Below are positions 628 to 28,241 of a stretch of 64,000 nucleotides of DNA, piece by piece. The DNA lies in contig DJSW01000009.1 of assembly GCA_002439085.1 (NCBI GenBank), positions 42,192-106,191 of the forward strand, in the 5' to 3' direction. The notes below the pieces were generated by a model. It did no database searches. It had not been told where the DNA came from and was given only the letters and a program-made list of their open reading frames with translations. How positions within the stretch are numbered: the first letter of the stretch is position 1; each line of letters begins with the position of its first letter. Position numbers and translations under genes: made by a program. Source of the DNA: Alphaproteobacteria bacterium UBA6324. Lineage in GTDB: Bacteria > Pseudomonadota > Alphaproteobacteria > CAAGCB01 > CAG-977.

Positions 628-1359
628 TCAGCGCGTGTATTCGTCGCGTTTGCGAATACGCAGCGCCGTGCGTCCCGATTCCTGTTCGCGGCGTTTGGAC
701 ATCTGGTATTTTTTGGCGAAATCCGTGTCGCGTTTGGTAATGGCCTGATCCTTCTGCAATCCGCGCAGTTTACGCAATCTGGAAACGCTGATCTTCTGCC
801 CCTTGGCGTCGGTGATGTACAGTTCTTTTTTGGCTGTCTTTTCCAACTCTTTTTTGCGGTTGCGCTCGATTCTGGCGCGGGACAGACGGCGGCGGCGTTC
901 GGACGGCAACAGACGGCCGGCCGAATGGCGTTTGCGTTTGGTTTTGCCGCCCAATCCGCGCACGTCGCGCTTTTTCAATTCCATCGGTTTGCTGCGCCCG
1001 ACGTACAATCCGGATTCTTGCGCGCGGGAAATGTCGTCGAACGACAGCGCGCCTTCGATTCCCAAACGGCGTTCCTGACGCAACAGATTGTTGCGCACGT
1101 CGATTTTTTCGGCTTCGCGGCGGACGACTTCGCGGCGTTCCTTTTCGGCGTCGGAAACGCGCGGCTGGCGGTTCTGTTCGGCTTTTTCGGCATAGCTGCG
1201 ATCCTCGGCCTCTTTGGCCGCGCGCGCCGTGCGGTACAGGACGCTGTCGTCGCGCACCGTGTTGGAATGGACGCTTTTATCGCCGTGCCGCTGTTGCCAG
1301 ACCAAAGCGCTGTTGTCTGTCAGGCGGATGCGTTTTTTCTTGTTTTCTTCCATTTTCAT
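628..1359 (-). CDS. Hypothetical, extremely charged (Lys/Arg/Glu-rich) 243-aa protein.
   Basis: Complete ORF with an ATG start, followed by the terminator at 565-614. Composition is dominated by K/R/E (e.g. RRRRLSRARIERNRKKELEKTAKKE). No recognisable catalytic motif. An extended -10 (TGnTATAAT; revcomp of 1404-1411) lies upstream. Confidence 0.55.
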   Translation of the reverse strand: MKMEENKKKRIRLTDNSALVWQQRHGDKSVHSNTVRDDSVLYRTARAAKEAEDRSYAEKAEQNRQPRVSDAEKERREVVRREAEKIDVRNNLLRQERRLGIEGALSFDDISRAQESGLYVGRSKPMELKKRDVRGLGGKTKRKRHSAGRLLPSERRRRLSRARIERNRKKELEKTAKKELYITDAKGQKISVSRLRKLRGLQKDQAITKRDTDFAKKYQMSKRREQESGRTALRIRKRDEYTR

Positions 1360-1399
1360 GACCCCGATTCTGAAAAACCGAACCCTTTGTTATCACTTT

Positions 1400-1440
1400 T
1401 TTCATTATACAGCAAAGAAAACAAAAGGAAAGGGGTTTTG
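1400..1440 (-). promoter_or_regulatory. Putative sigma70 promoter with an extended -10 for the gene 628..1359.
   Basis: The minus strand reads ...ctttgctgTATAATg. The TG sits 1 nt upstream of TATAAT, about 40 nt before the ATG. Confidence 0.3.
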
Positions 1441-1494
1441 AAGAAAAAATCGACAAAAAAGCGCGCGGGTGCGGTGTCCGGAAAACGGCGAAAT

Positions 1495-3891
1495 TCAATG
1501 GACGGGCAGGGTGATTTGCGTTTTCTTCGCCCCGTTTTTGTCCGAAACGTTCAGCGTCCCGCCGTGCATTTCGATGAACCCGCGGATCAGGGACGCGGCG
1601 AATCCGTTTCGGGCGGCGAAATTCACCGTGTCGGATTCGTTTTTCACGTCCAGCGACGTTTCTTCGATCGCGACGATCAGGTTTTTGTCGCCGGTTTGAA
1701 CGGACAGGGACACGCCGCCGTCTTTGAACGCCGCGGCGACGGCGTTGTTGACAAGGTAGAACAGAACCTGTTTCAACCTTTTTTTATCCGCGACCAAAGT
1801 AGGCAGCTTGTCCGGACACGTCAGGTTCAGTGCGACGTTTTTCAGGCGCGCCTGTTCCTTGACCGCGTTCAAAACGCCGTTCAGCAACGCGCCAATGTCG
1901 ATGCATTCCAATTCCAAAACGGCCGATCCCGTTTCGATCAACGCCAGATCGACCATGTCGCCGAAAAGGTTTTTCAATTCGGCCGACGCGTCGAAAATCG
2001 TTTGCAGGCACGCTTTCTGCCGCCGGTTGAACCGCAGGTTTTCGCCGTCCGACAGTTTTTTGACGGTGTCGGTCAACGCGGACAGCTGCGGATTGATTTC
2101 GCGCCCCAGCTGTTCCAAAAACACGGCGCGCAGTTTTTCGGCCTGCACGGTCGTTTGTTTGAAACGGCTCAGCAACATTTCCTTTTCTTGCGCTAAAGAC
2201 GTGTTCCGTTCCTCTTCCGTCACGTCCAAAAACGAAACGAACACGCCGCCGTCGGGCAATCCGGCCGCGGAAAATTCCAACACTTTGCCGTCGGGGCGCA
2301 GAATCTGGAAAATTTCGCCCGTGTGCGCCGTCGCGACGCCCAGCAGCTGTTCTTTCAGCGTTTCCCAGTTGTCCTCGTTTTCAAAGAAAGGCTTTTGCTT
2401 TTCAATGACCTCAATGATGCTCAAAGGCGGATCGTTGAAATTTTGATCGCCGATCTGCCATAAATTCAGGTACGCCGCGTTCGCCAGACGCAGCCGCCCG
2501 TCGGAACCGAACAGCAAAACGGCTTCGCGCAGGTTGTTCAAAACGGTGTATTGCGTTTCGTTCAACATGGTCATCGACCGTTCCATGGTCAAATGCCCCG
2601 TCACGTCTTCGTAAGTGATCAGCAGGCCGCCTTGGGGGTGCGGGGTCAGCATACGGCGCAAAGTCACGCCGGACGGCAGGTGCAGGATGTCTTCGGTCGT
2701 GGACACCAGCGACGTGAAAAACTTTATTTCGCGGGTTTTATAGGCGTTGAAATCCCTGTTTTCCGGCAGCCGCCGTTTTTCGCGCAGCATATCCAGAATA
2801 TGGGAATACGTCGGCGATTTGTCCAGCCATTCGGCCTCCAAATCCCACAGGTTCATGAACGACGTGTTGTAGAATTGCAGCCGCATATCCGCGTCGAACG
2901 TGGCAATGGCCGTTTTCAGGTGTTCCAAAACGCCGTTGTGCGACGCGATGTGGTTTTTCAGGCTGTTTTCCAACTCCTCTTCCCGCGTGACATCGCGCAC
3001 AAACCCGATCGTGCCGCGTTTTCCCGACGCGCGGGCGGGCAGGGGGATTTCGGACGCCTCGACCCGCCGGCGTTTGCCGTCGATGACGACGAATTCGCTT
3101 GTTTTCTTTTCCTTGCCGGACGCGCGGGCGGCGGCGGCCAGCACTTTGGCTTCGCGCGGGGATTTTTCATACACCAACTCGCCGCCCAGCAAAACGGCCT
3201 GTTCGGGCGAACCGGCGCGCGCCGCCTTTGCGTAGGCGGGGTTGCACGCCGCGATCTGCAGGTCTTCGCCGCGCAGCCATACGGGAAAGGGCAGGGCGTC
3301 GAACGCCTGTTTCAACGTGGCGTTTTTGCGTTCCGCCTCTTCCGCCCGACCGGTCAAAGCGGCCAGCCGCGCGTTGCCGTCCGTCGTTTCCCGCACCCAC
3401 AGCGTATCCACCGCGCCCTTGTTTTCGTCCATGCGGGTTCTGAATCCGGAAACCAGAAAGCTGCGCGCCCCCGCCACGTCGCCCAGTTCCAGCGTGAACG
3501 GCCGGTCGTCGGCGCGCATGGCGTTGATCGCGCCGCTTAACGCTTCGGCGCCGGCGGCGGAAAAATGTTCCAGCAAAGCGTCAAAGGACGAATTGACGCC
3601 CTGCGACAAATCCATCATGACGGCCAGACGGCGCGAACAATGCGTTTCGCGCAAAAAACCGATCGAATCGAACACCCACGAATACCACCCGTCGGGAAAG
3701 CTTTCCAACGTTTCGCGCGCCGTGTCGCGCTTTTCGGCGTTCAAAACGGCCTGTCGCCGCCATTTCAAGGCGCACCGGACGCCCGCGGCCGACAGCAGGG
3801 CGAGCGCGATGAAAACGGCGCACAGCGCTTTCGGGTGGAAAAACGCCGATATCATCAGTTTGGTTAAAAGCGAATCGAATGCCGTTGTCAT
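1495..3891 (-). CDS. Membrane-anchored multi-PAS sensor histidine-kinase-like protein. The dimerization/phosphotransfer (DHp) region has no histidine and the G1 box is degenerate, so it is a DivL-like pseudokinase.
   Basis: 798-aa ORF with an N-terminal TM segment (AVFIALALLSAAGV), several PAS-like blocks, and a C-terminal HATPase_c-like region. The N box is LVNNAV and the G2 box is GFAASLIRGFIEMHGGTL. The expected H box reads FLEQLGREINPQLSAL, with Arg where His (or DivL's Tyr) should be. No His occurs anywhere in about 90 aa of the DHp region. Confidence 0.8.
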   Translation of the reverse strand: MTTAFDSLLTKLMISAFFHPKALCAVFIALALLSAAGVRCALKWRRQAVLNAEKRDTARETLESFPDGWYSWVFDSIGFLRETHCSRRLAVMMDLSQGVNSSFDALLEHFSAAGAEALSGAINAMRADDRPFTLELGDVAGARSFLVSGFRTRMDENKGAVDTLWVRETTDGNARLAALTGRAEEAERKNATLKQAFDALPFPVWLRGEDLQIAACNPAYAKAARAGSPEQAVLLGGELVYEKSPREAKVLAAAARASGKEKKTSEFVVIDGKRRRVEASEIPLPARASGKRGTIGFVRDVTREEELENSLKNHIASHNGVLEHLKTAIATFDADMRLQFYNTSFMNLWDLEAEWLDKSPTYSHILDMLREKRRLPENRDFNAYKTREIKFFTSLVSTTEDILHLPSGVTLRRMLTPHPQGGLLITYEDVTGHLTMERSMTMLNETQYTVLNNLREAVLLFGSDGRLRLANAAYLNLWQIGDQNFNDPPLSIIEVIEKQKPFFENEDNWETLKEQLLGVATAHTGEIFQILRPDGKVLEFSAAGLPDGGVFVSFLDVTEEERNTSLAQEKEMLLSRFKQTTVQAEKLRAVFLEQLGREINPQLSALTDTVKKLSDGENLRFNRRQKACLQTIFDASAELKNLFGDMVDLALIETGSAVLELECIDIGALLNGVLNAVKEQARLKNVALNLTCPDKLPTLVADKKRLKQVLFYLVNNAVAAAFKDGGVSLSVQTGDKNLIVAIEETSLDVKNESDTVNFAARNGFAASLIRGFIEMHGGTLNVSDKNGAKKTQITLPVH

Positions 3892-3924
3892 TTCTTTAAA
3901 ATAGCGCGGGCGCGGGAAAAGGCA

Positions 3925-3961
3925 AAATAAAAAACGCCGGAGTTTCCTCCGGCGTTTTGAA
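3925..3961. terminator. Rho-independent terminator downstream of the minus-strand gene 3976..4719 (bidirectional-looking).
   Basis: aaaaaacgccggagtttcctccggcgtttt: a GC stem with A/T runs on both sides. Confidence 0.5.
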
Positions 3962-3975
3962 AGTGTCGCGCGGGC

Positions 3976-4719
3976 TTAACGTTGCGCCTGTTTCGCCATG
4001 GCGGCAACCAGAATCGGTTTTTTCGCGCCGTTCTGGGGCGGGGCGAATTTTTCCAGTTCGCTTTTGCGCTGGGCGGCGTCGGCAACCTGTTTCGCCGTGT
4101 AAATCTTGGGATAATGGGACGCGTTGACGCGCGAAGCGTAATTCGGGTGCACCGGCTGGTTTTCCTTGGTGATGCCGAATTTTTTCGGGTCGTAGATCAT
4201 TTCGTCCGTCCACGGCAGCATGACTTCTTTTTTCTGTCCCGATCCCATGCAGTCCGCGATCTGCGGATCCAGCACGTCGTGGTGCCACTGGTCGTGCGGG
4301 TACAGCGGGGTCATGATGAAGTTGGAAAATTCGTTTTTGCCGCCGCCGTGCAAAGGCAGTTTGTGATGCACGTTGTACCCCGGAACGGAACGGCCTTTTT
4401 TCATCATCGCGATTTCGGAATCGGTCAGGCCGAGTTTGGCGCGCAATTCCGGTTCGTGTTCGTTGGCCAGCATTTTCAGGAATTTGGAACGCACGCCCTC
4501 TTTGCCGCCGGAACCGTTGAATTCGGCGCGTTTGGCTTCGCGTTCCGATTTGGACGGAACTTCGTAGGTGACCTTTTTCAGGCTCATCCCGTGGATGTTG
4601 TCAAAGTTGAACTTTCCGGCGCGCTGTTCGGCGGTGTAGCCCTGTTTCTGGCCTTTGTCCTTGCCGCCTTTGCCGTGGCTGCGTTTCTCGTGAACGTATT
4701 TGTAATCGATATCCAGCAT
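3976..4719 (-). CDS. Colicin E9/pyocin S-type HNH DNase-domain protein (paralog 1). It has a Lys/Gly-rich N-terminus and a conserved ~90-aa C-terminal extension.
   Basis: The motif ...KGRSVPGYNVHHKLPLHGGGKNEFSNFIMTPLYPHDQWHHDV aligns with the colicin E9 DNase core (KGYSPF...[32 protein letters not shown]). The N-terminal KRSHGKGGKDKGQK resembles the E9 DNase-domain start KRNKPGKATGKGKP. GGGGGA SD precedes the ATG, and a terminator follows. Confidence 0.75.
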   Translation of the reverse strand: MLDIDYKYVHEKRSHGKGGKDKGQKQGYTAEQRAGKFNFDNIHGMSLKKVTYEVPSKSEREAKRAEFNGSGGKEGVRSKFLKMLANEHEPELRAKLGLTDSEIAMMKKGRSVPGYNVHHKLPLHGGGKNEFSNFIMTPLYPHDQWHHDVLDPQIADCMGSGQKKEVMLPWTDEMIYDPKKFGITKENQPVHPNYASRVNASHYPKIYTAKQVADAAQRKSELEKFAPPQNGAKKPILVAAMAKQAQR

Positions 4720-4830
4720 GAATTCCCCCGTATGCTTTAAAGGACTCTGTTAAACTCAACATAGGAAAAATGGACAAAAAAATCAACAAAAATTTTATTT
4801 CTTTTTCAGATTTGTTTTTTCCGTATGTCA

Positions 4831-4872
4831 AAAAGGCGGAAAGCCGCGCCGGTTCCCGCCTTTTGTTTTTTT
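4831..4872. terminator. Rho-independent terminator between the two DNase paralogs.
   Basis: aaaaggcggaaagccgcgccggttcccgccttttgttttttt. On the minus strand the stem is followed by ttttt. Confidence 0.45.
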
Positions 4873-4883
4873 CGCGCCGGAAA

Positions 4884-5702
4884 TTATCCGCGCTGTCTGT
4901 CGCGCACGATCTGACGCAGAGCCGTTTTAACCGGCGTCTGTTTCTGCGTCTGCTTTTTCTGTTCGGCGTTTTTCGCGTCGATGGCCGCGTAAAATTCCTT
5001 CATATCCTTCTGCCGTTTGGCCACGCTGATATGTTCGGGCTTGTACAGCTTCGGATAGTTCGCCGGATCGACGTTGGACACATAGTTCGGCTTGACGGGC
5101 TGGTTTTCCTTGGTGAATCCGAACTGTTTCGGATCATAGATCATTTCGTCCGTCCAAGGGATTTTGATTTTGCGCGTTTCGCCTTCGCGGATGCCCAGCA
5201 GCTGCGCGTCCATCACGTCCTTGTGGAACTGGTCGTGCGGATACAGCGGGGTCAGGATGAAGTTTTTGAATTCGTTTTTGCCGCCGCCGTGCAAAGCCAG
5301 TTTGTGGTGGACGTTGAACCCGTTCGGCGTGTAGCCTTCGCGCATTCCCTGAATGTCGCGGTCGGTCAGTCCCAAACGGTCAACCAGTTCCTTTTCGTGG
5401 TCTTTGGCCAACATTTTCAGGAATTTGGAACGCACGCCTTCGACCAGAACGTTACCGTCTTCGTCGCGCACGCCGTTGAATTCCTCGCGTTTCGCGACGC
5501 GTTCGGCCTTTGACGGGACGGTGTATTCAACCTCTTTCAATTTCAACCCGTGGATCGTGTCGAAAGAGAAATTGCCCTCGCGCTGGTCGCGGTTGTGATG
5601 CCCTTCGGAATAAAAGCCGCCGTTTCCCTTGCCTTTGCCGTTGTTGTTGGAACGGCCTTTGCCGCTTTGGCGTTTGGCGTGAACGTACTTGTCATCAATC
5701 AT
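4884..5702 (-). CDS. Colicin E9/pyocin S-type HNH DNase-domain protein (paralog 2).
   Basis: GFNVHHKLALHGGGKNEFKNFILTPLYPHDQFHKDV. The C-terminal block PWTDEMIYDPKQFGFTKENQPV is shared with paralog 1. GGGAG SD lies 9 nt upstream of the ATG. Confidence 0.75.
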   Translation of the reverse strand: MIDDKYVHAKRQSGKGRSNNNGKGKGNGGFYSEGHHNRDQREGNFSFDTIHGLKLKEVEYTVPSKAERVAKREEFNGVRDEDGNVLVEGVRSKFLKMLAKDHEKELVDRLGLTDRDIQGMREGYTPNGFNVHHKLALHGGGKNEFKNFILTPLYPHDQFHKDVMDAQLLGIREGETRKIKIPWTDEMIYDPKQFGFTKENQPVKPNYVSNVDPANYPKLYKPEHISVAKRQKDMKEFYAAIDAKNAEQKKQTQKQTPVKTALRQIVRDRQRG

Positions 5703-5790
5703 CGCAAAATACTCCCGATAGAAAAAGCCGGAACGGCGTCAGGCCGTTTGTTGACAAAAATATACAAAAAAACGGAAAAGCTGTCCAGCG

Positions 5791-6132
5791 TTATTTGCGC
5801 CCGTCCGCCGTTTCGCCGTCGTTTTCCGGTTCGACCGGCGCGGGTTGGCAGCGGAAGTAAACCCTGTGGGGCAAAAACACGCGGCACGACCAGTATTTGT
5901 GGCCGTCATAGGCGGCTTCGCGGCCGGTGCGGGCGCATTCCTCCTGCGCCATTTTGAAAATTTCGGCCGCGTTGGTGGAATAGGCGTTGTAACAGATCGC
6001 CACGCGGTCGGGCGTCGATTCGCCCACGGTTTTTGAAAATCCGGCTTCGCGTCTGGAATCGACAAAAGGCTGCTGGACACATCCGGCCAGCGTCAGCGCA
6101 AACAGCAGCAACGATTTTTTCATGACGGTCAT
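5791..6132 (-). CDS. Small lipoprotein (lipobox LTLAGC) immediately upstream of the DNase pair.
   Basis: MTVMKKSLLLFALTLAGC is a signal peptide plus lipobox. The start could be either ATG 6132 or ATG 6123. Confidence 0.5.
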   Translation of the reverse strand: MTVMKKSLLLFALTLAGCVQQPFVDSRREAGFSKTVGESTPDRVAICYNAYSTNAAEIFKMAQEECARTGREAAYDGHKYWSCRVFLPHRVYFRCQPAPVEPENDGETADGRK

Positions 6133-6295
6133 ATCCGCCCCGCACAGTTATGTAAAGACGGTTCATCATCCACGAAACGCGGCGGATATTCAACACCGAA
6201 AACGTTTTTTTTTCATTTGTCAAAGCGACGGTTGATTTTAACGCCGGATTTCGCTTATCCTGATTGCGGCGAATAATGACGAGGGAGCGGTTTTC

Positions 6296-7222
6296 ATGCT
6301 GGCAAAAAAACGGTTGCTGACGCGCAGCGATTTCGACGGACTGGTCTGCGCGGCTTTGCTCAAAGAGTTGGACATTATCGACGAGATACGCTTTGTCCAT
6401 CCGAAAGATATGCAGGACGGGCGGATTTCCATCACCGACATGGATATCACCGCGAACCTGCCGTATGTGGACGGGGTGTATATCGCGTTCGACCACCACA
6501 TCAGCGAACTGTCCCGCATCATCAGCCCCCCGAACCACGTCGTTTATCCGAACGCCCCTTCCGCCGCCCGCGTCGTTTACGAATATTACGGTGCCGAGGA
6601 ACGGTTCAAAAACATTCCGCCCGCTTTGATGCAAGCCGTTGACATCGCCGATTCGGCCAAATACACGATTGACCAGATCATGAACCCGACGGGGTGGATT
6701 TTGTTGGCGTTCATCATGGACGCGCGCACGGGGCTGGGGCGGTTCAAAAATTTCCGCATCACGAACTATCAGCTGATGATGAAGCTGGTTGACCTGTGCC
6801 GCACGAAAAGCGTCGATGAGATTTTGCAGGACGAGGATGTCAAGGAACGCGTCGATTTGTATTTCGCACACAAGGATAAATTCGTCGAACAGCTGAAACG
6901 TTGCACCCGCATTCACAAAACGGCGGCGCACATCTATTTGCGCGACGAGGAAACAATTTACGCCGGCAATCGGTTCATGGTATATGCCCTGTTCCCGCAG
7001 ATCAACATTTCCGTACACGAAATTTGGGGCAAGAACAAGCGCAACGTCGTTTTCGCCGCCGGCAAGTCGATTTTCAACCGGACATCGAAAATGAACATCG
7101 GCGAATTCATGCTGCAATACGGCGGTGGCGGCCACATCGCCGCGGGGACGTGCCAAGTTCCCGTCGATCAGGCGGACAGAATCCGCGAAGAGATCATCAC
7201 CGCCATGGTTCAGGACGTGTAA
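6296..7222 (+). CDS. DHH/DHHA1 family phosphoesterase (NrnA-like nanoRNase / pAp phosphatase type), paralog A.
   Basis: RSDFDGLV (DxD), AFDHHIS (DHH) and GGGGHIAAG (the DHHA1 GGGH motif). GAGGGAG SD 8 nt upstream. Confidence 0.8.
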   Translation: MLAKKRLLTRSDFDGLVCAALLKELDIIDEIRFVHPKDMQDGRISITDMDITANLPYVDGVYIAFDHHISELSRIISPPNHVVYPNAPSAARVVYEYYGAEERFKNIPPALMQAVDIADSAKYTIDQIMNPTGWILLAFIMDARTGLGRFKNFRITNYQLMMKLVDLCRTKSVDEILQDEDVKERVDLYFAHKDKFVEQLKRCTRIHKTAAHIYLRDEETIYAGNRFMVYALFPQINISVHEIWGKNKRNVVFAAGKSIFNRTSKMNIGEFMLQYGGGGHIAAGTCQVPVDQADRIREEIITAMVQDV

Positions 7223-7227
7223 AGGCC

Positions 7228-8175
7228 ATGGTTGACGACAGATTCCGGTTGGTGACCCGCAGCGATTTCGACGGGCTGGTCAGCGCGATCCTGCTCAAAG
7301 AGCTGGATCTGATCGACGACATCAAATTCGTCCACCCCAAGGACGTGCAGGACGGTTTGGTCGATATCCGCGCGGGCGACATCCTGACGAACCTGCCGTA
7401 TTCCAAATCGGCGTCCTATGTGTTTGACCACCATATCAGCGAACTGGCGCGCGTCGGGAAAAAAAGCAACAACTTCATCAATCCGGACGCGCCGTCGGCC
7501 GCGCGCGTCGTGTGGGACACGTTTGGCGGAAAGGAACGGTTCCGCAACATATCCGAAGAAATGATGACCGCCGTGGATAAAGCCGACAGCGCCGATTACA
7601 CGATCGACGACATCCTGCATCCGACGGGGTGGACGCTGCTGAGTTTCATCATGGACGCGCGCACGGGGTTGGGGCGGTTCCACAATTTCCGGATATCGAA
7701 CTATCAGCTGATGATGAACCTGATTGATTTCTGCCGGTCGCACGACCCGTCCGAGGTTTTGGAAATGCCCGACGTTCAGGAACGCGTCGATCTGTATTTC
7801 GCCCAACAGGATAAATTTGTCGAACAGCTGAAACGCATTACGACCGTTCATAAAAATCTGGCTTATGTCGATATGCTGAACGAAGATGTCATTTACGCGG
7901 GCAACCGGTTTATGATTTATGCGATTCATCCGGAAATCAACGTTTCGATGCACGCAATGTGGCGCGTCAACGGCCAGCGCGTCGTTTACGCGGTCGGCAA
8001 GTCTATTTTGAAACGCACGAACATCATCAACATCGGCGAACTGATGTTGCAATACGGCGGTGGCGGACACGCGAACGTCGGAACGTGCCAGATTGATTTG
8101 GATCAAGCGGCGCGCGTCAAGGACGAGCTGATCGCCGTGCTGACCGATCCGCAATACACGGAAAAGAATCCTTAA
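7228..8175 (+). CDS. DHH/DHHA1 family phosphoesterase, tandem paralog B.
   Basis: Same motifs (TRSDFDGLV, VFDHHIS, GGGGHANVG). The ATG at 7228 follows the stop of paralog A. The track ORF 6901..8175 is an out-of-context 5' extension. Confidence 0.8.
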   Translation: MVDDRFRLVTRSDFDGLVSAILLKELDLIDDIKFVHPKDVQDGLVDIRAGDILTNLPYSKSASYVFDHHISELARVGKKSNNFINPDAPSAARVVWDTFGGKERFRNISEEMMTAVDKADSADYTIDDILHPTGWTLLSFIMDARTGLGRFHNFRISNYQLMMNLIDFCRSHDPSEVLEMPDVQERVDLYFAQQDKFVEQLKRITTVHKNLAYVDMLNEDVIYAGNRFMIYAIHPEINVSMHAMWRVNGQRVVYAVGKSILKRTNIINIGELMLQYGGGGHANVGTCQIDLDQAARVKDELIAVLTDPQYTEKNP

Positions 8176-8181
8176 GGTTTT

Positions 8182-8688
8182 TTATTTTTTGACCGAAACA
8201 TCCGCTTCAATCACGGCGGGCAACTGATCCAGCGCGTCATAGGATTCCAGCCGTCCGACGGGAACGCCGGCCGCGGGCAGCATCGGCGCGTCCGTCGTCA
8301 CGCCCGCGGGGGTCGGCCCGAACATCAGGCACAGCGCGTTGTTGCGCGGCATCAGGGCGACTTCACCCGCGCGATAAGCGCGCCTTTCGGGAACGCCCTG
8401 AACCTTTGATGCCGCTTTTTCGGGCAGGGGCGCGAAATACATTCCGTCGCCGCGGCGGCTCATCACCAGTTTTTTGGGCAGGGTTTTCGCCAAAGCGCGC
8501 GCCGCTTTGTTGTCGTACAGACGCAGAGTGAACACGGTGCTTTCCACCGTCAAAACGACGGGCGGCAAATCGGCGGCGACAACATCGCCGGCGCGTTCCA
8601 TACGGGAAACTTCGATATGTTCGTCAACGGCGATCGCAACGATCCCGATCGCAAACACCAGCAGAATGATCAGAAAGATTTTTTTCAT
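8182..8688 (-). CDS. Signal-anchored cyclophilin-like-fold (DUF369-type) protein.
   Basis: Starts MKKIFLIILLVFAIGIVA. GGAGG SD upstream of the ATG at 8688. Residues ...LRLYDNKAARALAKTLP... resemble the cyclophilin-like family. The longer track ORF start lacks an RBS. Confidence 0.5.
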   Translation of the reverse strand: MKKIFLIILLVFAIGIVAIAVDEHIEVSRMERAGDVVAADLPPVVLTVESTVFTLRLYDNKAARALAKTLPKKLVMSRRGDGMYFAPLPEKAASKVQGVPERRAYRAGEVALMPRNNALCLMFGPTPAGVTTDAPMLPAAGVPVGRLESYDALDQLPAVIEADVSVKK

Positions 8689-8806
8689 CGGCCGCGTTCC
8701 TCCGACAAAGCGAAAAACTGTTCGGGATTTTCCATAAAAGAGGGGGCGCGTCAATAAAAAAAAGCCCCCTTTCGCGTGAAAGAAGGCTTTTTTTTATCAA
8801 AACGTC

Positions 8807-9442
8807 TTATTCGATGCAGCAATCGACCGCTTTGCGTACAAACGCTTTCATTTTCGACAGCGCGGAGGCGGGCTTTTCGCCGTCGGCCGGTTCGGCGGCG
8901 ACGACCGTTTCCGCGGGGGCGGCGTCGGATTTTTCCGCCGCGGGCGTGATGTCCGCCTGTTCCAGTTTTTCTGAAATCTTCGCCATGTCTTCGCGTTTAT
9001 CTTCGATCCACTTGACATCCGCCGTGTCCAGCATATTCATGTTCAGTCCCCAGAACAGGCAGTAGAGTTCATAGGCGTGGTTGAACAGTTTGTACGCGTC
9101 TTCGCGGTGGCCGAGGCTTTGCTGTTTCGTGCCGACTTCCATCAACCGCATCGCCGACGCCAACAGGTGTTTGGAAATGCACCAAACTTCGCCTTCGTAC
9201 TGCGGAATGACCTTTTGCATCAGGGTCTTGCGCAGTTCGCGGACTTCCTCGATCAGGTCGTAGAACGAGTTTTTACCCGTTTTTGCGCCGCTGAACACCA
9301 GATGCTCCTCGATCGAAATCAGGTTCATGATCGCGATCGTCAGATCCTGATCCGACGACAGGTCTTTGGGGTTGACTTTTTTCGTCGCGTCGATTCGCTC
9401 GACGAATTCCTGAACGTCTTTCGCTTTTTTCATTGTGAACAC
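8807..9442 (-). CDS. Hypothetical cytoplasmic protein ending in ...VDCCIE.
   Basis: AAGGAG SD 9 nt upstream of the ATG. The start lies 3 bp after the stop of the upstream membrane protein. Confidence 0.55.
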   Translation of the reverse strand: MFTMKKAKDVQEFVERIDATKKVNPKDLSSDQDLTIAIMNLISIEEHLVFSGAKTGKNSFYDLIEEVRELRKTLMQKVIPQYEGEVWCISKHLLASAMRLMEVGTKQQSLGHREDAYKLFNHAYELYCLFWGLNMNMLDTADVKWIEDKREDMAKISEKLEQADITPAAEKSDAAPAETVVAAEPADGEKPASALSKMKAFVRKAVDCCIE

Positions 9443-18310: not shown

Positions 18311-20656
18311 TTACCGCTGTTTCTGCGCGCTGAGCAGCATATCGAAAGCCGATTTCTTCTGTTCGACCTTGAACCCTTTCAGGTTCAGCGGCGAAGCGCG
18401 TTCCGCCGTTTTCAGCGTTTCGGCATATTTCGCCATGCTTTCAAACGTGCGCAGGTCTTTTTTCTTCAGCGCGGTGGCCGTCTGCGGGCTACCCGTGAAG
18501 GTTTCGACCAGATATTTGTGCGTTCCGGCGACTTCGTTGTACAGCGTGGCGGCGACGTTTTTGTCCATGTTGCCCGCGCTCATCTGGTACTGCGCCAAAG
18601 CGGCCGTCGGTTTCTGTTTGGCTTTCTGGTCGATCAGCATGGACAGAACGGGATCGGCGGACACTTTCGCCCACGTTTCCTTGTCCGAACGGATCGCGAA
18701 AGCGGCAACCTGCGTTTCTTTTTCGGCGATCAAAGCCTTTTTGAAATCCTTGCGTTCGGCGCGCAGCGAATCGATCGTGTCGTTGACCGTCATCTTTTCG
18801 GGTTCGCGCTGGTACGCTTTGATCAGCGCGTTCGACAGAGAGGTCGCGACGCGCAGTTCGTTTTTAATGAAATGGACGATCGCGGCGTCGCCGGAAACTT
18901 CGGTCGTCGATTTGATGTCGTCCAACTGTTTTTTGACCAAGCGGTTGGCGGTCAGCATGGCTTCGACGTTCGGTGCCTGTTCGATGACGGCGTCAACGAC
19001 TTTCAGCTTATCGCCGGCGAACTTGTCGTTGCCTTTGTCTTTGCGGCCTTCCAGACGCAGGGTTTCCTTTTCGTCGCCCAAAACGGCGTGCATTTCGGCG
19101 CGCGATTCGGTGGTGTCCAGTTTGTCCAGCAGATCAGCCTGATACTGCGCGACGCTGAGGGCGCGCTTGTTTTCCGTTTTGGTCGCGTTGGCGCGCTGGG
19201 CTTTCAGCTTCTTTTTCAATTCGGGCGAAAAGTCCGGCGTCGGCGCGGGCAGACCCAAATTGGCGTTCAGCTGGGCGGCTTCGTGATACGCGCTGAGTTC
19301 GCGCTGCAACTCGTATTCCTGTTCCAGCACTTTGTTGTCAACGGGCATATGGTCGCGGGACACCTGAACGCGTTCCATCATCTGTTCGTATTTCGGGTGT
19401 TTTTCGCCGGTCGCCAGAGCGATCGAGATTTCGGCCATCTGCTGACGGGTCAGACCGTAGGTTTCGGACATGACCTGCGCCTGTTTGATGACTTCCAGAT
19501 CCGACATTTTCTGCAGCGAACCGTCGGCCAGATGTTCCTTGGCGTATTTGACCGTGGCGTCGATAACGTCGGTCGTGTGGTACGCCAGCGGCGATCCCAG
19601 CTGTTTGATCGTGTTGGCGACGTTGCGGTCGGCCATCAACTGTTTGAATTTGTTTTCATAATCCGGATCGTTCGGATTCTGCGCCTGCGCCTTTTCTTCG
19701 GCTTCGCGAATCTGTTTGATGAAATCGGTGTCGTATTTCGTGTCGTCCATGCGGCGGTCAACGCACATACGCAAATATTCGATGCGGCAGTCGCCCCAGA
19801 TTTCGGCGCATTTCGTGTTGCCGAAATCGCGCGCCAGCTGCAGAACGGCGTGCGCGTCGGCGATGCATTCCGTGCGGTGGCGGCACATCACGTTGTCCAA
19901 TTCCGTTTCGGCGATTTTGTTGACCGAGTTATAGGCGGACGCGTAGTTGTGGTCGGTCGCGTGTCCCAATTCGTGATACAGAACCAGACGGCGGAATTCG
20001 TCGAAGGAAACGCCTTCTTTCTTGCGGCGTTCTTCGGCGCCGACCACCATGTCCAGAACGTTCGCGCTCATCGCGTCGGGGTTGTCGCCGACGACCAGAT
20101 TGACGTTGCCCAAACCGGCCAGATTTTCCATGGTCGGCGAAACGGCGGCGCGCATCGAAAACGGGTTGCGGTCGGTGATGCCGGCTTCGGAAACGGATTT
20201 CAGAATCTCGTCGTTCGTCAGGAACGTTTTGCCTTTGCCCGCGGCGGCTTTCTGCAATTTGTCCTCGACGTACATATACAGGGATTTGCCCAGCGAACGG
20301 TCGTCTTCGGTATCCAGCAGGTAACGCCCCTGAACCGCGTCGGGGTCGATGATGAACAGCGTGACGCCCGGCATGACCGTGCGGAAACGTTTTTCCATAT
20401 TGTCAAAGAATTGATGCGCTTCGGTGTCCAACGCGGGGGATTTTTCCAATTCGGCGGGCGTTCTGACCGTCAGCGTGTCAGCGGCGTCGCCTTTGGCGAT
20501 GACGGACGTTTGGCCTTTCGGCAGCAAATTGAAGAACGGGCGATCCTGCAAATGGTCGGGACGATCCAAGCCGCTTTCAAAAACCGTGATTTTGCCGGCC
20601 CGCATAAAGGCGTCCAGCAACGAAGAGGTTTTCGATTCTTTGTTTTCTTCAGTCAT
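18311..20656 (-). CDS. Large (781 aa) cytoplasmic-looking HExxH zincin-like protein (HELGH...ECIAD gluzincin-type motifs). No signal peptide.
   Basis: LVLYHELGHATDHNYA...ETELDNVMCRHRTECIADAHAV. AGGAAA SD lies before the second ATG (20656). Terminator downstream. The long antisense ORF 18236..20668+ is a shadow. Confidence 0.7.
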   Translation of the reverse strand: MTEENKESKTSSLLDAFMRAGKITVFESGLDRPDHLQDRPFFNLLPKGQTSVIAKGDAADTLTVRTPAELEKSPALDTEAHQFFDNMEKRFRTVMPGVTLFIIDPDAVQGRYLLDTEDDRSLGKSLYMYVEDKLQKAAAGKGKTFLTNDEILKSVSEAGITDRNPFSMRAAVSPTMENLAGLGNVNLVVGDNPDAMSANVLDMVVGAEERRKKEGVSFDEFRRLVLYHELGHATDHNYASAYNSVNKIAETELDNVMCRHRTECIADAHAVLQLARDFGNTKCAEIWGDCRIEYLRMCVDRRMDDTKYDTDFIKQIREAEEKAQAQNPNDPDYENKFKQLMADRNVANTIKQLGSPLAYHTTDVIDATVKYAKEHLADGSLQKMSDLEVIKQAQVMSETYGLTRQQMAEISIALATGEKHPKYEQMMERVQVSRDHMPVDNKVLEQEYELQRELSAYHEAAQLNANLGLPAPTPDFSPELKKKLKAQRANATKTENKRALSVAQYQADLLDKLDTTESRAEMHAVLGDEKETLRLEGRKDKGNDKFAGDKLKVVDAVIEQAPNVEAMLTANRLVKKQLDDIKSTTEVSGDAAIVHFIKNELRVATSLSNALIKAYQREPEKMTVNDTIDSLRAERKDFKKALIAEKETQVAAFAIRSDKETWAKVSADPVLSMLIDQKAKQKPTAALAQYQMSAGNMDKNVAATLYNEVAGTHKYLVETFTGSPQTATALKKKDLRTFESMAKYAETLKTAERASPLNLKGFKVEQKKSAFDMLLSAQKQR

Positions 20657-20915
20657 AGCGTTTCCTAACATATCTATGAAAACTATATTTATGTTCGCAT
20701 AGTGATACCGCCGTATCCCGAAGTCAAGATTTTTTTAGACAAACACGGAAATTTTTTCTGAAATTATTTTTCCGAACCCCTATTGTTTCCGCCAAATTGC
20801 CGGTTGAACCGTTTTAAAGAAAACCGTCCGGTTCCGGCTATTCGCCCCGTTTGAAAAAAAGATGGAGGCGGGGGCGCGAAAACGCTATCATAATAAAAAA
20901 GGCAAGGAGGCGGAA

Positions 20916-26116: not shown

Positions 26117-26189
26117 GGAAAAAAGTTGTTGATTGAATTTTAATATACGATATGCTGTATTGGTTGATAATCCGAACGGGGAGGGAAAA

Positions 26190-28241
26190 ATGACCGGTTT
26201 GAAAGATTTAAAAGAAGGCATCGAAAAGGGTAAAATCGTTTTGCCGAATGTGCAGCGCGGATTCGTCTGGAAACCGTGGCAGATCGAAAACCTGTGGGAT
26301 TCGTTGATGCGCCGTTTTCCGGTCGGGTCGTTCGTCGGCGTTGAAAAAGACGGCAAGACGGAATTGCTGGACGGGCAGCAGCGGGCGACGGCGATCGCTC
26401 TGGCTTTTTTTGAACCGGACGGAACAGAAGACTCGCAGAACGTGCTGCGGTCTTCGACGGATCGGGTGCGACTGTTCATTGATTTGAAAAAGGGAACGGG
26501 GACTGATCGGAAATACATTTTCCGCGTCATTACGAAATCGCATCCGTGGGGATATCAAAAAAGCCGGAACGATCGGACGTTGAGCGCGGAAAACATTCGC
26601 CGCGCGTGCGAGGATTACAAAATGGCAGATAAAAACCCGTATGCGGAACCGTTGGGCAAATTCTGGCCTTATGACGCGTCGTTTCCCGTGCCGTTCGGTT
26701 TTTTCCTGAACGGTGACAATGCGGCAACCGTCCGTTCAAAAATCGAACGGTGGTGCGAACGGCATCATCAAAAGCCTTTTCCGACGGGGCCGGATTATTA
26801 CGGCATAAAAGAATTGCTTGATACCGTGCGAGATGTTTTGGGTAACACTTCTTTGCCGCTGTTGTTGGTGAGCGAACAGGTTTTGGACGCGGAAACCGGA
26901 TTGTCCGCGTCGGACGGCGAAACCGACACCGATGCGGATGACGGGGACGATGAAATCGAAAACCTGTTCATCCGGCTGAACGCGGGCGGGACGCCTTTGC
27001 GCGGCGAGGAATTGAATTATTCGATTTTGAAAACGAACATCGGTATTGATTTGCAAAAAAGGATTGAAAACGCCTGCGCGGGATTTATGCGTCCGGCGCG
27101 TTTCATCACCATCGCCTGCCGTTTGTACCAGAACCGGCCGGAAAAACCGACGGCCGACGCCGTGACGATGCGTATTCAACCCAAGCAGTTTCAAGGGATC
27201 ATTCGCAATGAAAAAGCGGGATTCATCCGATTCGTTGAAAAATTGCTGGATGCGGATTTTTTGGGGCGCGTGAAAACGGTTCTGCGTTACGATCCGGACG
27301 ACAACGCGTTCGGGCTGCCGGATTTCATCGTTTCGGAATTGGCGGACAGGGCGCCGGAAGTCATGTTGATGCTGATGCACCGTTTGCTTTATACGGATGA
27401 TGAAACGAAAATGACGGAGGAAACGCGCCGCAGGATGCTGGGCGTTGTCACGCTGCTGACGTGGTTCGGAAAGGGGCAGCGCGACCATGCGCCGCTGATC
27501 GGCCGGTTGTGGGAACAGGTCAGAAAAACAAAAGAGGCGGACGCTTTTTGGTCGGCCGGTTTGATGCGGACGGCCTGTGAGGAAAGGGAAAACGAAACCC
27601 TTTTTCCGGCGTTTCCGAAATTTAACGAATTGAAAAAAGGCATAAAAGCCCAAAAAAACATCCGCATAGATTCACTGTATCGCTGGAATTTTGAAAAGGT
27701 TCAACCGTTCTTGTCGCGGCTTTTTTATGAAAGAAGCCTGATCCTTTACGCCCAGCGCGACGCGTTGAACCTGTGGTTCAAAGATTGGCGGGATTTTGAT
27801 TTGGAAGACACGCTGTGTCCGTTCGATTGGGATCACATTTCGCCAGAAAATCTGATTTACCGCAAACGCCATATTCACGACGCGTTGAAAAGCTGGTACC
27901 AGACGAACGGCAATTTCCGCGCGTGGCCGTTTACGCTGAACCGGAAAGATCAAGATGTTGTGCCGAGTGAAAAGCTTTTGTGTTCAAAGAATGATTTCAC
28001 GGACATTTTAAAAAGCATCGGCGTGACGGATTATCCGTATAAATCCGACGTGTTGCTTGATTGGTCGAAATGCGCCAAGGCATGGAAAGAAATTGATTTT
28101 AACGACCTGTCGGAAAAAACGGATTCGCAGCACAAAAGAAACAAACAGCTGATCAACGCCATTATCAACCGCAATCTGGAATTGATCCGGACGTGGTATG
28201 ACGAATTGCGTATCAACGATCTTTGCCCGTCAGGCAAATGA
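26190..28241 (+). CDS. GmrSD-like type IV (modification-dependent) restriction endonuclease: an N-terminal DUF262 (ParB-like NTPase) domain fused to a C-terminal DUF1524 (His-Me finger) domain.
   Basis: DUF262 motifs: PNVQRGFVWKPWQIENLWDSL and LLDGQQRATAIALAFF, then an acidic linker DGETDTDADDGDDE, then FIRLNAGGTPL. DUF1524 motifs: FDWDHISPE and NGNFRAWPFTLNRKDQD. GGAGGG SD before ATG 26190. Confidence 0.8.
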   Translation: MTGLKDLKEGIEKGKIVLPNVQRGFVWKPWQIENLWDSLMRRFPVGSFVGVEKDGKTELLDGQQRATAIALAFFEPDGTEDSQNVLRSSTDRVRLFIDLKKGTGTDRKYIFRVITKSHPWGYQKSRNDRTLSAENIRRACEDYKMADKNPYAEPLGKFWPYDASFPVPFGFFLNGDNAATVRSKIERWCERHHQKPFPTGPDYYGIKELLDTVRDVLGNTSLPLLLVSEQVLDAETGLSASDGETDTDADDGDDEIENLFIRLNAGGTPLRGEELNYSILKTNIGIDLQKRIENACAGFMRPARFITIACRLYQNRPEKPTADAVTMRIQPKQFQGIIRNEKAGFIRFVEKLLDADFLGRVKTVLRYDPDDNAFGLPDFIVSELADRAPEVMLMLMHRLLYTDDETKMTEETRRRMLGVVTLLTWFGKGQRDHAPLIGRLWEQVRKTKEADAFWSAGLMRTACEERENETLFPAFPKFNELKKGIKAQKNIRIDSLYRWNFEKVQPFLSRLFYERSLILYAQRDALNLWFKDWRDFDLEDTLCPFDWDHISPENLIYRKRHIHDALKSWYQTNGNFRAWPFTLNRKDQDVVPSEKLLCSKNDFTDILKSIGVTDYPYKSDVLLDWSKCAKAWKEIDFNDLSEKTDSQHKRNKQLINAIINRNLELIRTWYDELRINDLCPSGK

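Follow-up and report, generated by a model that had tools for sequence, protein, structure and literature searches.

Tandem stand-alone HNH nucleases of an uncultured gut and rumen alphaproteobacterial lineage as candidate effectors of the HNH-SUKH toxin superfamily

Within a 64,000-nucleotide stretch of Alphaproteobacteria bacterium UBA6324 (contig DJSW01000009.1, positions 42,192 to 106,191; hereafter ‘the window’), two neighbouring genes, HNH_A and HNH_B, encode proteins that belong to the HNH / His-Me finger endonuclease superfamily, as judged by their catalytic motif, predicted fold and profile matches. Our best explanation, held with middling confidence, is that they are stand-alone DNase effectors of the HNH-SUKH toxin superfamily, protected in trans by a SUKH-1 protein and routed by a shared C-terminal tail. 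An HNH domain that serves as a toxin warhead elsewhere would thus have become free-standing in this lineage and expanded to about six paralogs; the acidic SUKH-1 would cover the basic DNA-binding/active-site face of all of them, shielding the producer; and the nucleases would be exported or targeted via a tail that also appears on metallopeptidase-like and β-CASP nuclease families of the same lineage, going on to degrade the DNA of competitors or extracellular DNA.

Both genes run along the minus strand in head-to-tail order (Table 1) and are paralogs, with 53% identity over 238 amino acids (aa; E 4e-88); their codon-position G+C content matches the pattern in the window's real genes. Purine runs resembling ribosome-binding sites (GGGAG and GGGGGA) precede their start codons, and the 164-bp spacer between them contains a terminator hairpin with its U-run. 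On these points a preliminary description, made from the sequence alone, holds good: it had recorded tandem paralogous open reading frames (ORFs), a ribosome-binding site and terminator for each gene, a terminator in the 164-bp spacer and a lipoprotein gene upstream. It had also recorded an absence of delivery domains, and indeed Pfam, NCBIfam and PADLOC find no trafficking domain (Rhs/PAAR, LXG, CDI, MuF and the like) in either protein; at 247 and 272 aa, they have an N-terminus of just 44 residues, which is disordered.

Working from the active site outwards, we see that the catalytic motif, HH...GG...N...N...H-x3-H, is invariant across 44 aligned homologs (H132, H133, G140, G141, N143, N147, H156, D157 and H160 in HNH_B) and intact in 147 of the 150 family ORFs of the loci that we fetched for comparison. 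The AlphaFold2 model of HNH_B (mean predicted local distance difference test score, pLDDT, 89.6; predicted template-modelling score 0.83) is a single compact domain spanning residues ~30–250, and positions the invariant residues on a beta-beta-alpha element (strands 129–133 and 148–152, helix 153–168), in agreement with the beta-beta-alpha-Me motif first proposed for both proteins. Pfam gives HNH_A a single match, to a generic HNH below threshold (E 0.16), and NCBIfam matches neither protein. Our 44-sequence family profile (A1) matches the HNH domains of Cas8f-HNH (E 1.3e-3) and of a group II intron maturase, not those of colicins; a 64-sequence diverse profile of the superfamily core (A4) also matches the HNH of the group II intron maturase, and reaches Cas8f-HNH at E 8.5e-8. 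Both proteins thus look active and are predicted to be metal-dependent DNases, a claim that we grade jointly with the explanation as a whole.

Ahead of the domain, the family consensus has an N-terminal motif, Y-V-H-x-K-R; 82 of its 90 occurrences in the fetched loci are in HNH family members, and we therefore set aside the idea that it is a modular signal carried by other cargo, since it is essentially confined to this family. In several relatives a single polypeptide contains two or three HNH domains (P0128 and P0149; also P0133, P0142, P0173 and P0204), those relatives with a named source coming from metagenome-assembled genomes (MAGs) of Alphaproteobacteria or Pseudomonadota. On reading P0128 and P0149, some of the copies are degenerate, with RH, HY or GY replacing HH; this hints that tandem HNH paralogs may act as (pseudo)dimers.

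A word-indexed search returned 137 relatives, mostly of ~190–340 aa, none with a precomputed Pfam domain and, where the source is named, all from Alphaproteobacteria MAGs. The exhaustive profile search reached further, to 790 proteins, in many of the longer of which the core (profile positions ~50–190) is C-terminal; 64 long core-bearing proteins have LXG, Tox-PAAR-like, PT-TG, PT-HINT, RHS, PAAR or prePAAR among their domains, and one matches the Mu portal family. Loci taken from GTDB genomes give the same picture at the level of gene order: in Photobacterium lutimaris, Hcp and VgrG genes are followed by that of a 1,411-aa Rhs protein with this domain at its end (the Rhs-HNH protein beside Hcp and VgrG being confirmed by Pfam), and then by a SUKH-family gene; in Sporolactobacillus shoreae, an LXG-EndoU toxin locus holds an HNH cassette, again confirmed by Pfam, and then a SUKH-like gene; and Rhodospirillales SZUA-500 has two HNH genes and then a SUKH gene in tandem. 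Given this C-terminal position in Rhs, PAAR and LXG proteins and the adjacent SUKH genes, the HNH core is, by its sequence context, a polymorphic-toxin warhead of both type VI (Rhs/PAAR) and type VII (LXG) secretion systems, its usual partner being a SUKH immunity protein; Zhang and colleagues described this pairing of HNH toxin domains with SUKH proteins (Zhang, Iyer and Aravind 2011, PMC3113570; Zhang et al. 2012, PMC3482391). A phage origin was considered and rejected: PHROG matches are limited to two families of unknown function, no relative lies on an IMG/VR contig, and a BFVD fold search gave just generic HNH matches with E above 0.1.

The host belongs to a lineage of gut and rumen genomes labelled ‘uncultured Rhodospirillales/Alphaproteobacteria’ or ‘Acetobacter sp. 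CAG:977’, on which literature searches gave nothing useful. Its closest counterpart in our set, contig 19 of the rumen MAG RUG12246 (L004), has 80–99% protein identity to the window for all shared genes and 96–99% at the HNH locus (98% for HNH_B itself). Most genomes of the lineage keep the same synteny, in which two genes similar to that of PggH are followed, divergently, by the lipoprotein gene and the long-form HNH_B; HNH_A is kept as well in the closer relatives (L001–L016, L029). A second HNH locus of RUG12246 (L035, on contig 9) contains three short paralogs of ~196–223 aa in tandem (S1–S3; 7216–9140, plus strand) and, a few kb away, a fourth (S4; 855–1499, minus strand), an arrangement also seen in L048 and others. 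This brings the family to about six members per genome: the long-form pair of the window, the three tandem short copies and S4. An immunity gene in the gaps of relatives' tandem loci was looked for and rejected, the inserts reading as genes for PfkB/pyridoxal-kinase-like and major facilitator superfamily-like membrane proteins.

Two further observations concern these loci. T2SSE and T2SSF ATPase/platform genes adjoin the HNH genes in L001–L003 (1–4423) and L048 (9095–16474), beside genes for giant proteins (one of 2,461 aa; another, of 1,024 aa, begins in a prepilin-like manner at its N-terminus); nothing equivalent is found in the window, and the neighbourhood may be coincidental. Contigs with the HNH, PggH and SUKH synteny of this alphaproteobacterial lineage also occur under the label ‘Limosilactobacillus gorillae’ (L021 and L057, assembly CAVCSV01), which is probably a mislabelled record or a contaminated bin.

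A candidate immunity partner lies 73 bp 3' of S4: a 146-aa ORF (L035 341–781, minus strand) that matches SMI1_KNR4 (SUKH-1) at 26.4 bits, against a Pfam cut-off of 25.4. SUKH relatives are found in 27 fetched loci, L035 included, and in every case where positions were compared the SUKH gene is the immediate neighbour of an HNH gene, with two exceptions (L044 and L062) in which it is retained at 90–91% identity without S4, no HNH remnant being apparent in the gap examined. SUKH exceeds every other gene of its locus in conservation, at 84–92% identity in most genomes of the lineage and 73–75% in two, as against 68–87% for the adjacent DTW gene and 46–78% for the HNH paralogs. It is also strongly acidic, with an isoelectric point (pI) of 4.05, and the six HNH paralogs are without exception basic, with values of 9.5–10.3. 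The earlier claim that these nucleases have no immunity gene therefore needs to be divided: it stands for this locus, where no immunity-like ORF adjoins HNH_A or HNH_B, and for the window, which has no SUKH match anywhere in its 64 kb, but it is true only locally, because SUKH-1 adjoins S4 at another locus of the same lineage organism, in a near-identical MAG. Our inference is that this single conserved SUKH-1 acts in trans to shield its producer from every one of the paralogs. This would be a one-to-many arrangement of toxin and immunity, unlike the usual one-toxin-one-immunity pairing, and a warning against naming toxins ‘orphan’ from local gene context alone.

At the opposite end of the proteins from the Y-V-H-x-K-R motif, all HNH paralogs, long or short, finish in a similar manner: a short hydrophobic stretch, basic or Gln residues and, usually, Gly-Arg, with a terminal Arg in 124 of the 150 family ORFs. 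When scored with a position matrix trained only on HNH tails of other genomes—one for which just 0.03% of internal 12-residue windows reach 8—seven non-HNH genes of the window score between 9.2 and 13.2 (tail-bearing genes are listed in Table 1), and a gene at 628–1359 (minus strand) scores weakly. The two DUF6782 proteins of the six-gene block are putative metallopeptidases. The block itself lies between ruvB (confirmed by Pfam) and a thioesterase gene that is followed by TolB, and since the run after it reads as ybgC-tolQRA-tolB-pal, it has the look of an inserted island. The 36 DUF6782 homologs are all of this same lineage, and in 34 of them a hydrophobic stretch precedes a terminal Arg; literature searches on DUF6782 yielded nothing useful. 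Candidate explanation of the tail as a repeated DNA element was rejected, as the tails have no DNA-level similarity except in two recent paralogs.

Tail-bearing genes are also found near HNH genes elsewhere. In L022, three tail-bearing DUF6782 genes (2874–6764) lie together, no more than 5 kb from a long-form HNH gene (8001–8726), from which we take it that such genes form islands in some genomes. The MAG UBA2903 has two divergent metallo-beta-lactamase nucleases of β-CASP/RNase J-like type with the tail, near its HNH loci (L023 9231–10892, plus strand; L056 13886–15544, minus strand); their mutual identity is 37%, and their matches to canonical RNase J have an E of ~1e-24.

Because it is found on several expanded hydrolase families without a Sec signal obvious by eye, we think that the tail best fits a signal for export or targeting that these families have in common. 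A bolder version of this idea, which we offer only tentatively, is that these ~14 residues are an as yet undescribed export or targeting signal that would define the substrates of a secretion pathway of this lineage, with the six HNH proteins, the DUF6782/HExxH proteins, the β-CASP proteins and the small membrane proteins as its cargo and SUKH-1 providing pan-immunity to the whole DNase family. Either way, a tail common to unrelated hydrolases offers a testable handle on how degradative enzymes are exported or targeted in an uncultured, widespread gut and rumen lineage.

Saying this, a number of observations weigh against the effector reading and towards its main rival, which we think unlikely on balance though deserving of serious attention: that these are intracellular nucleases, acting in DNA turnover or salvage, in stress- or phage-triggered degradation of self or invader DNA, or in a toxin-antitoxin-like manner, with SUKH-1 as the cytoplasmic inhibitor that keeps them in check and the tail as a degron or as a peptide that directs the proteins to a membrane or a partner. 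No secretion-system genes were found among the genes of the 64-kb window, and the HNH proteins have neither a Sec signal obvious by eye nor a known effector marker; the tail could instead be read as a degron, or as a helix that targets cytoplasmic enzymes to a membrane or a partner. Inheritance of the HNH genes looks vertical, their synteny is stable and they are under strong purifying selection, all of which would also fit a housekeeping role: in comparison with the closest genome, L004 (synonymous divergence, dS, ~0.1), the ratio of nonsynonymous to synonymous substitution rates (dN/dS) is 0.06 for HNH_B and 0.10 for HNH_A, with 0.04 for the neighbouring PggH homolog. Toxin genes, in contrast, are usually under diversifying selection and found beside their immunity gene. 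SUKH, for its part, is conserved more strongly than its housekeeping neighbours, and the tail-bearing β-CASP proteins are related to RNase J, which is normally cytoplasmic.

What decides us in favour of stand-alone effectors is that the HNH domain is the warhead of a secreted polymorphic toxin wherever its context elsewhere is informative. In addition, the tail-bearing set is a mixture of expanded hydrolases (DNases, peptidase-like proteins, divergent nucleases and small membrane proteins) found in islands, as is typical of effector repertoires, and the β-CASP proteins are divergent paralogs rather than canonical RNase J. A defence origin we reject, since PADLOC gives no match for the HNH proteins. 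Amongst the possibilities raised at the outset, that of an effector of an unlinked secretion system therefore fits best, given a core that serves as an Rhs/PAAR/LXG warhead and a tail in common with other hydrolases.

The long forms differ from the four short paralogs S1–S4 in having a C-terminal extension, for which the preliminary description gave a length of ~90 aa. The extension is real, although nearer to 80 aa (192–272 in HNH_B), as the profile search assigns residues ~166–191 to the core domain common to the distant toxins. Residues 190–250 are modelled with high confidence (pLDDT 93–98) and the conserved part, 192–250, is predicted to pack on the core; together with the lack of an immunity gene adjacent to HNH_A or HNH_B, this might be taken to favour a self-contained DNase, with the extension fused on as an intramolecular domain for immunity or regulation, as had been suggested. 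We consider this improbable. The extension is basic in both long forms (pI 9.2 and 10.5) where the SUKH candidate is acidic, the short paralogs lack it and nevertheless retain every catalytic residue, and the genome possesses a dedicated SUKH-1. That the extension is basic and missing from the short forms speaks against an immunity-like inhibitor; more likely, it adds contacts to DNA or the envelope rather than inhibiting the enzyme.

The central claim of the preliminary description was that a complete colicin E9 DNase domain extends over the first ~165 aa of each protein, and this is where our analysis departs from it. Neither protein matches Pfam Colicin-DNase or Col-Pyo_DNase (PF21431 / PF12639) at E up to 1, nor does phmmer find a colicin in the PDB; the Pfam check that it proposed thus yields no Colicin-DNase, and an HNH match below threshold on HNH_A alone. 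Paralog S3 has a sub-threshold match to Col-Pyo_DNase (18.8 bits against a cut-off of 27). Using hhalign, profile A1 aligns to E9 alone (1bxi_B over all 134 residues, as checked against the PDB) with a probability of 7.6%, and to a colicin/pyocin profile built from 17 sequences with 12%. Only with the diverse profile A4 does a colicin link emerge (92.7%, E 4.3e-7, 73 columns), pairing E9 48–132 with HNH_B 73–162 after deletion of an 11-residue colicin hairpin, and bringing H132/H133, N147, H156 and H160 of HNH_B into register with H102/H103, N118, H127 and H131 of E9. In searches of the PDB, A4 reaches pyocin AP41 at 8e-5 and colicin E7 at 0.02, over ~80 residues; Foldseek likewise ranks the DNases of pyocin AP41 and colicins E9/E7 first, albeit weakly (E 0.027–0.9), with ~82 residues superposing at 2.4 Å and a target-normalised TM score of ~0.43. 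No method that we used aligns the Gly/Lys-rich N-terminal segment, to which a resemblance with E9 had also been ascribed. We thus reject direct membership of the colicin family, Pfam, NCBIfam and phmmer being without a colicin match and the only link being between profiles and to part of the domain. By these alignments, the kinship of the HNH family with the colicin DNase domain is genuine but remote, and concerns about two-thirds of that domain, the C-terminal part. The original observation is largely right in outline, then, with its comparison to colicin E9 overstated.

That remote homology, along with the conserved presence of the lipoprotein gene, is what could be said for a true colicin-type nuclease bacteriocin operon with the lipoprotein as its lysis or release protein, which we regard as very improbable. 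Pfam's colicin-family threshold is not reached, and the N-terminal translocation and receptor-binding domains and the downstream Im-type immunity gene that mark nuclease bacteriocins are absent from HNH_A and HNH_B. The lipoprotein gene is upstream, with a promoter-like site and a hairpin between it and HNH_B; in relatives, an unrelated gene (PfkB-like, by reading) comes between the two; and at 113 aa the product is far longer than colicin release lipoproteins, which are ~45–50 aa as precursors. Least probable of all, in our estimation, are silent orphan toxin cassettes held for recombination into a large polymorphic toxin gene: orphan HNH cassettes do occur 3' of the LXG toxin in Sporolactobacillus, but the full-length ORFs here have a start codon, ribosome-binding site, promoter-like site and terminators of their own as well as a conserved family-specific N-terminal motif, no large toxin gene lies upstream amongst what are ordinary chromosomal genes, and the near-universal retention of the catalytic motif, a dN/dS of 0.1 or less and these expression signals all but rule out silent cassettes or pseudogenes.

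Table 1. Coordinates of the nuclease genes, their component parts and other features of the window
Feature	Position	Strand	Description and basis
HNH_B	4884..5702	-	272 aa; predicted stand-alone HNH/His-Me-finger DNase, long form with C-terminal extension; 137 homologs; ORF list
HNH_A	3976..4719	-	247-aa paralog of HNH_B; ORF list
HNH_B catalytic beta-beta-alpha-Me motif	5223..5315	-	aa 130-160, NVHHKLALHGGGKNEFKNFILTPLYPHDQFH; invariant columns, hhalign, secondary structure
HNH_A catalytic motif	4282..4374	-	aa 116-146, NVHHKLPLHGGGKNEFSNFIMTPLYPHDQWH; paralog alignment, invariant columns
HNH_B N-terminal motif	5670..5687	-	Y-V-H-x-K-R; family consensus; followed by disordered basic Gly/Lys-rich linker, aa 12-44, pLDDT ~50
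HNH_B lineage-specific extension	4929..5129	-	aa 192-258; conserved coil PNY..V.P..YP..Y.PEH, then long helix; conservation, basic
HNH_B tail	4887..4928	-	KTALRQIVRDRQRG; hydrophobic, basic, terminal R/G; flexible helix 259-271, pLDDT ~65 (AlphaFold2)
HNH_A tail	3979..4020	-	KPILVAAMAKQAQR; tail comparison
Sigma-70-like promoter, 5' of HNH_B	5759..5787	-	TGGACA-17-TATATT; consensus match only
Intrinsic terminator, 3' of HNH_B	4831..4864	-	Hairpin and U-run; RNA fold -24.6 kcal/mol (66-nt stretch), z -2.15
Intrinsic terminator, 3' of HNH_A	3931..3958	-	12-bp stem and T-run
Lipoprotein gene	5791..6132	-	113 aa; lipobox LTLAGC; syntenic neighbour upstream of HNH_B
Six-gene tail-bearing block	45840..52541	+	732-aa HExxH protein, three small paralogs (194, 207 and 215 aa), two DUF6782 proteins (375 and 390 aa); Pfam DUF6782
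786-aa tail-bearing protein	18311..20671	-	SAFDMLLSAQKQR; matrix score 11.7; no Pfam match

The remaining features of the locus can be dealt with briefly. Neighbours of the pair are ordinary chromosomal genes, among them that of a PAS histidine kinase downstream; the lipoprotein gene keeps its position in most relatives, at 61–78% identity. A terminator-like hairpin with a T-run (5732–5748, minus strand) lies between the promoter-like site and the start codon of HNH_B, and because of this placement may be a 5'-untranslated-region attenuator or, equally, the terminator of the lipoprotein gene. On the plus strand, 6296–7222 and 7234–8175 are tandem paralogs of ~308 aa, ~60% identical to each other and with no Pfam match at E < 1e-3, that are close homologs of PggH, a DHH-family pGpG phosphodiesterase (PDB 7d62, E 1.7e-122). 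In most relatives, their transcription runs divergently from that of the lipoprotein and HNH genes; given their identity as PggH-type enzymes, we set aside a functional coupling to the HNH genes. Further away, 26133–28241 (plus strand) encodes a 702-aa protein with a GmrSD_N domain and matches to PADLOC HEC-05 models (E 1e-20), likely a type IV restriction or defence gene. The sequence TTTTTGTCMA occurs in four exact copies in the window (4771–4780, 5751–5760, 48876–48885 and 18558–18567; 0.95 expected), three of which are just 5' of tail-bearing genes (HNH_A, HNH_B and that of the 207-aa protein). With one mismatch allowed the enrichment is nearly gone (31 copies, 21 expected), and the sequence is probably a -35-like promoter element rather than a specific operator.

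Turning to known systems, the DNases of colicins E9/E7/E2 and pyocins S2/AP41 have in common with this family five catalytic and metal-binding residues (H-H...N-x8-H-x3-H, with equal spacing after the Asn), a co-linear alignment that takes in the preceding helix and a ‘G-Y-x-P’ segment, and an overall basic character. They differ in that the N-terminal third of the colicin domain is unmatched, the 11-residue hairpin is missing from the HNH family, and the fold of HNH_B, at ~220 aa rather than 134, has extra N-terminal strands, a C-terminal strand and the extension; and colicins have receptor-binding and translocation domains, where HNH_A and HNH_B do not, and are partnered by a four-helix protein of Im7/Im9 type, where the HNH family has SUKH-1. 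Even so, the family widens the detectable sequence neighbourhood of the colicin and pyocin DNases.

A second comparison is with Tox-REHH (Rehh/RehhI). This toxin is a DNase derived, with deep divergence, from HNH; its active-site pocket is basic, and it is neutralised by acidic immunity proteins, SUKH among them, which are proposed to be DNA mimics; SUKH is predicted to bind this HNH-type toxin through an acidic surface (bioRxiv 10.64898/2026.09.22.753552). The two are not the same: judged by the residue description given in that paper rather than by alignment, R46, H52, E53, H102 and H121 differ in motif and spacing, and Tox-REHH has no detectable HNH sequence similarity, whereas the window family has a canonical HNH motif that profiles find.

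The tail, in turn, recalls effector sets that are defined by a common C-terminal signal, among them the Xanthomonas X-Tfe effectors, which carry an XVIPCD, and VirB/D4 substrates, whose C-termini are positively charged. Papers on such sets include PMC8740702 and PMC6536674. Here, too, several unrelated hydrolase families of one genome have a C-terminal element in common and no Sec signal, and the lineage tail is positively charged with almost no acidic residues. It differs from the XVIPCD in being just ~14 residues in length (hydrophobic, K/R/Q, C-terminal Gly-Arg) and not a domain; an XVIPCD is ~120 aa. Type IV secretion system genes were seen neither in the window nor in the annotated loci.

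A further comparison is with the polymorphic HNH-SUKH toxins themselves, with which the family forms one superfamily by profile search. The immunity gene that adjoins the toxin in those systems is missing beside HNH_A and HNH_B, and present, as a SUKH-family gene immediately next to an HNH gene, for paralog S4 and the distant relatives. Unlike those toxins, the window proteins stand alone without a trafficking domain; there are about six paralogs per genome and one SUKH gene only; inheritance appears vertical, with stable synteny and purifying selection; the lineage family has its own N-terminal motif and C-terminal tail; and the single His of the Rhs and LXG relatives corresponds to H-x3-H in the lineage proteins. 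HNH toxins with SUKH partners are known as modules of large secreted polymorphic toxins. What differs here is a free-standing warhead, present in about six stably inherited copies per genome, with one unusually conserved immunity gene, located elsewhere, that appears to cover them all; and the parts worth following are the shared tail and this arrangement of one immunity protein to many toxins.

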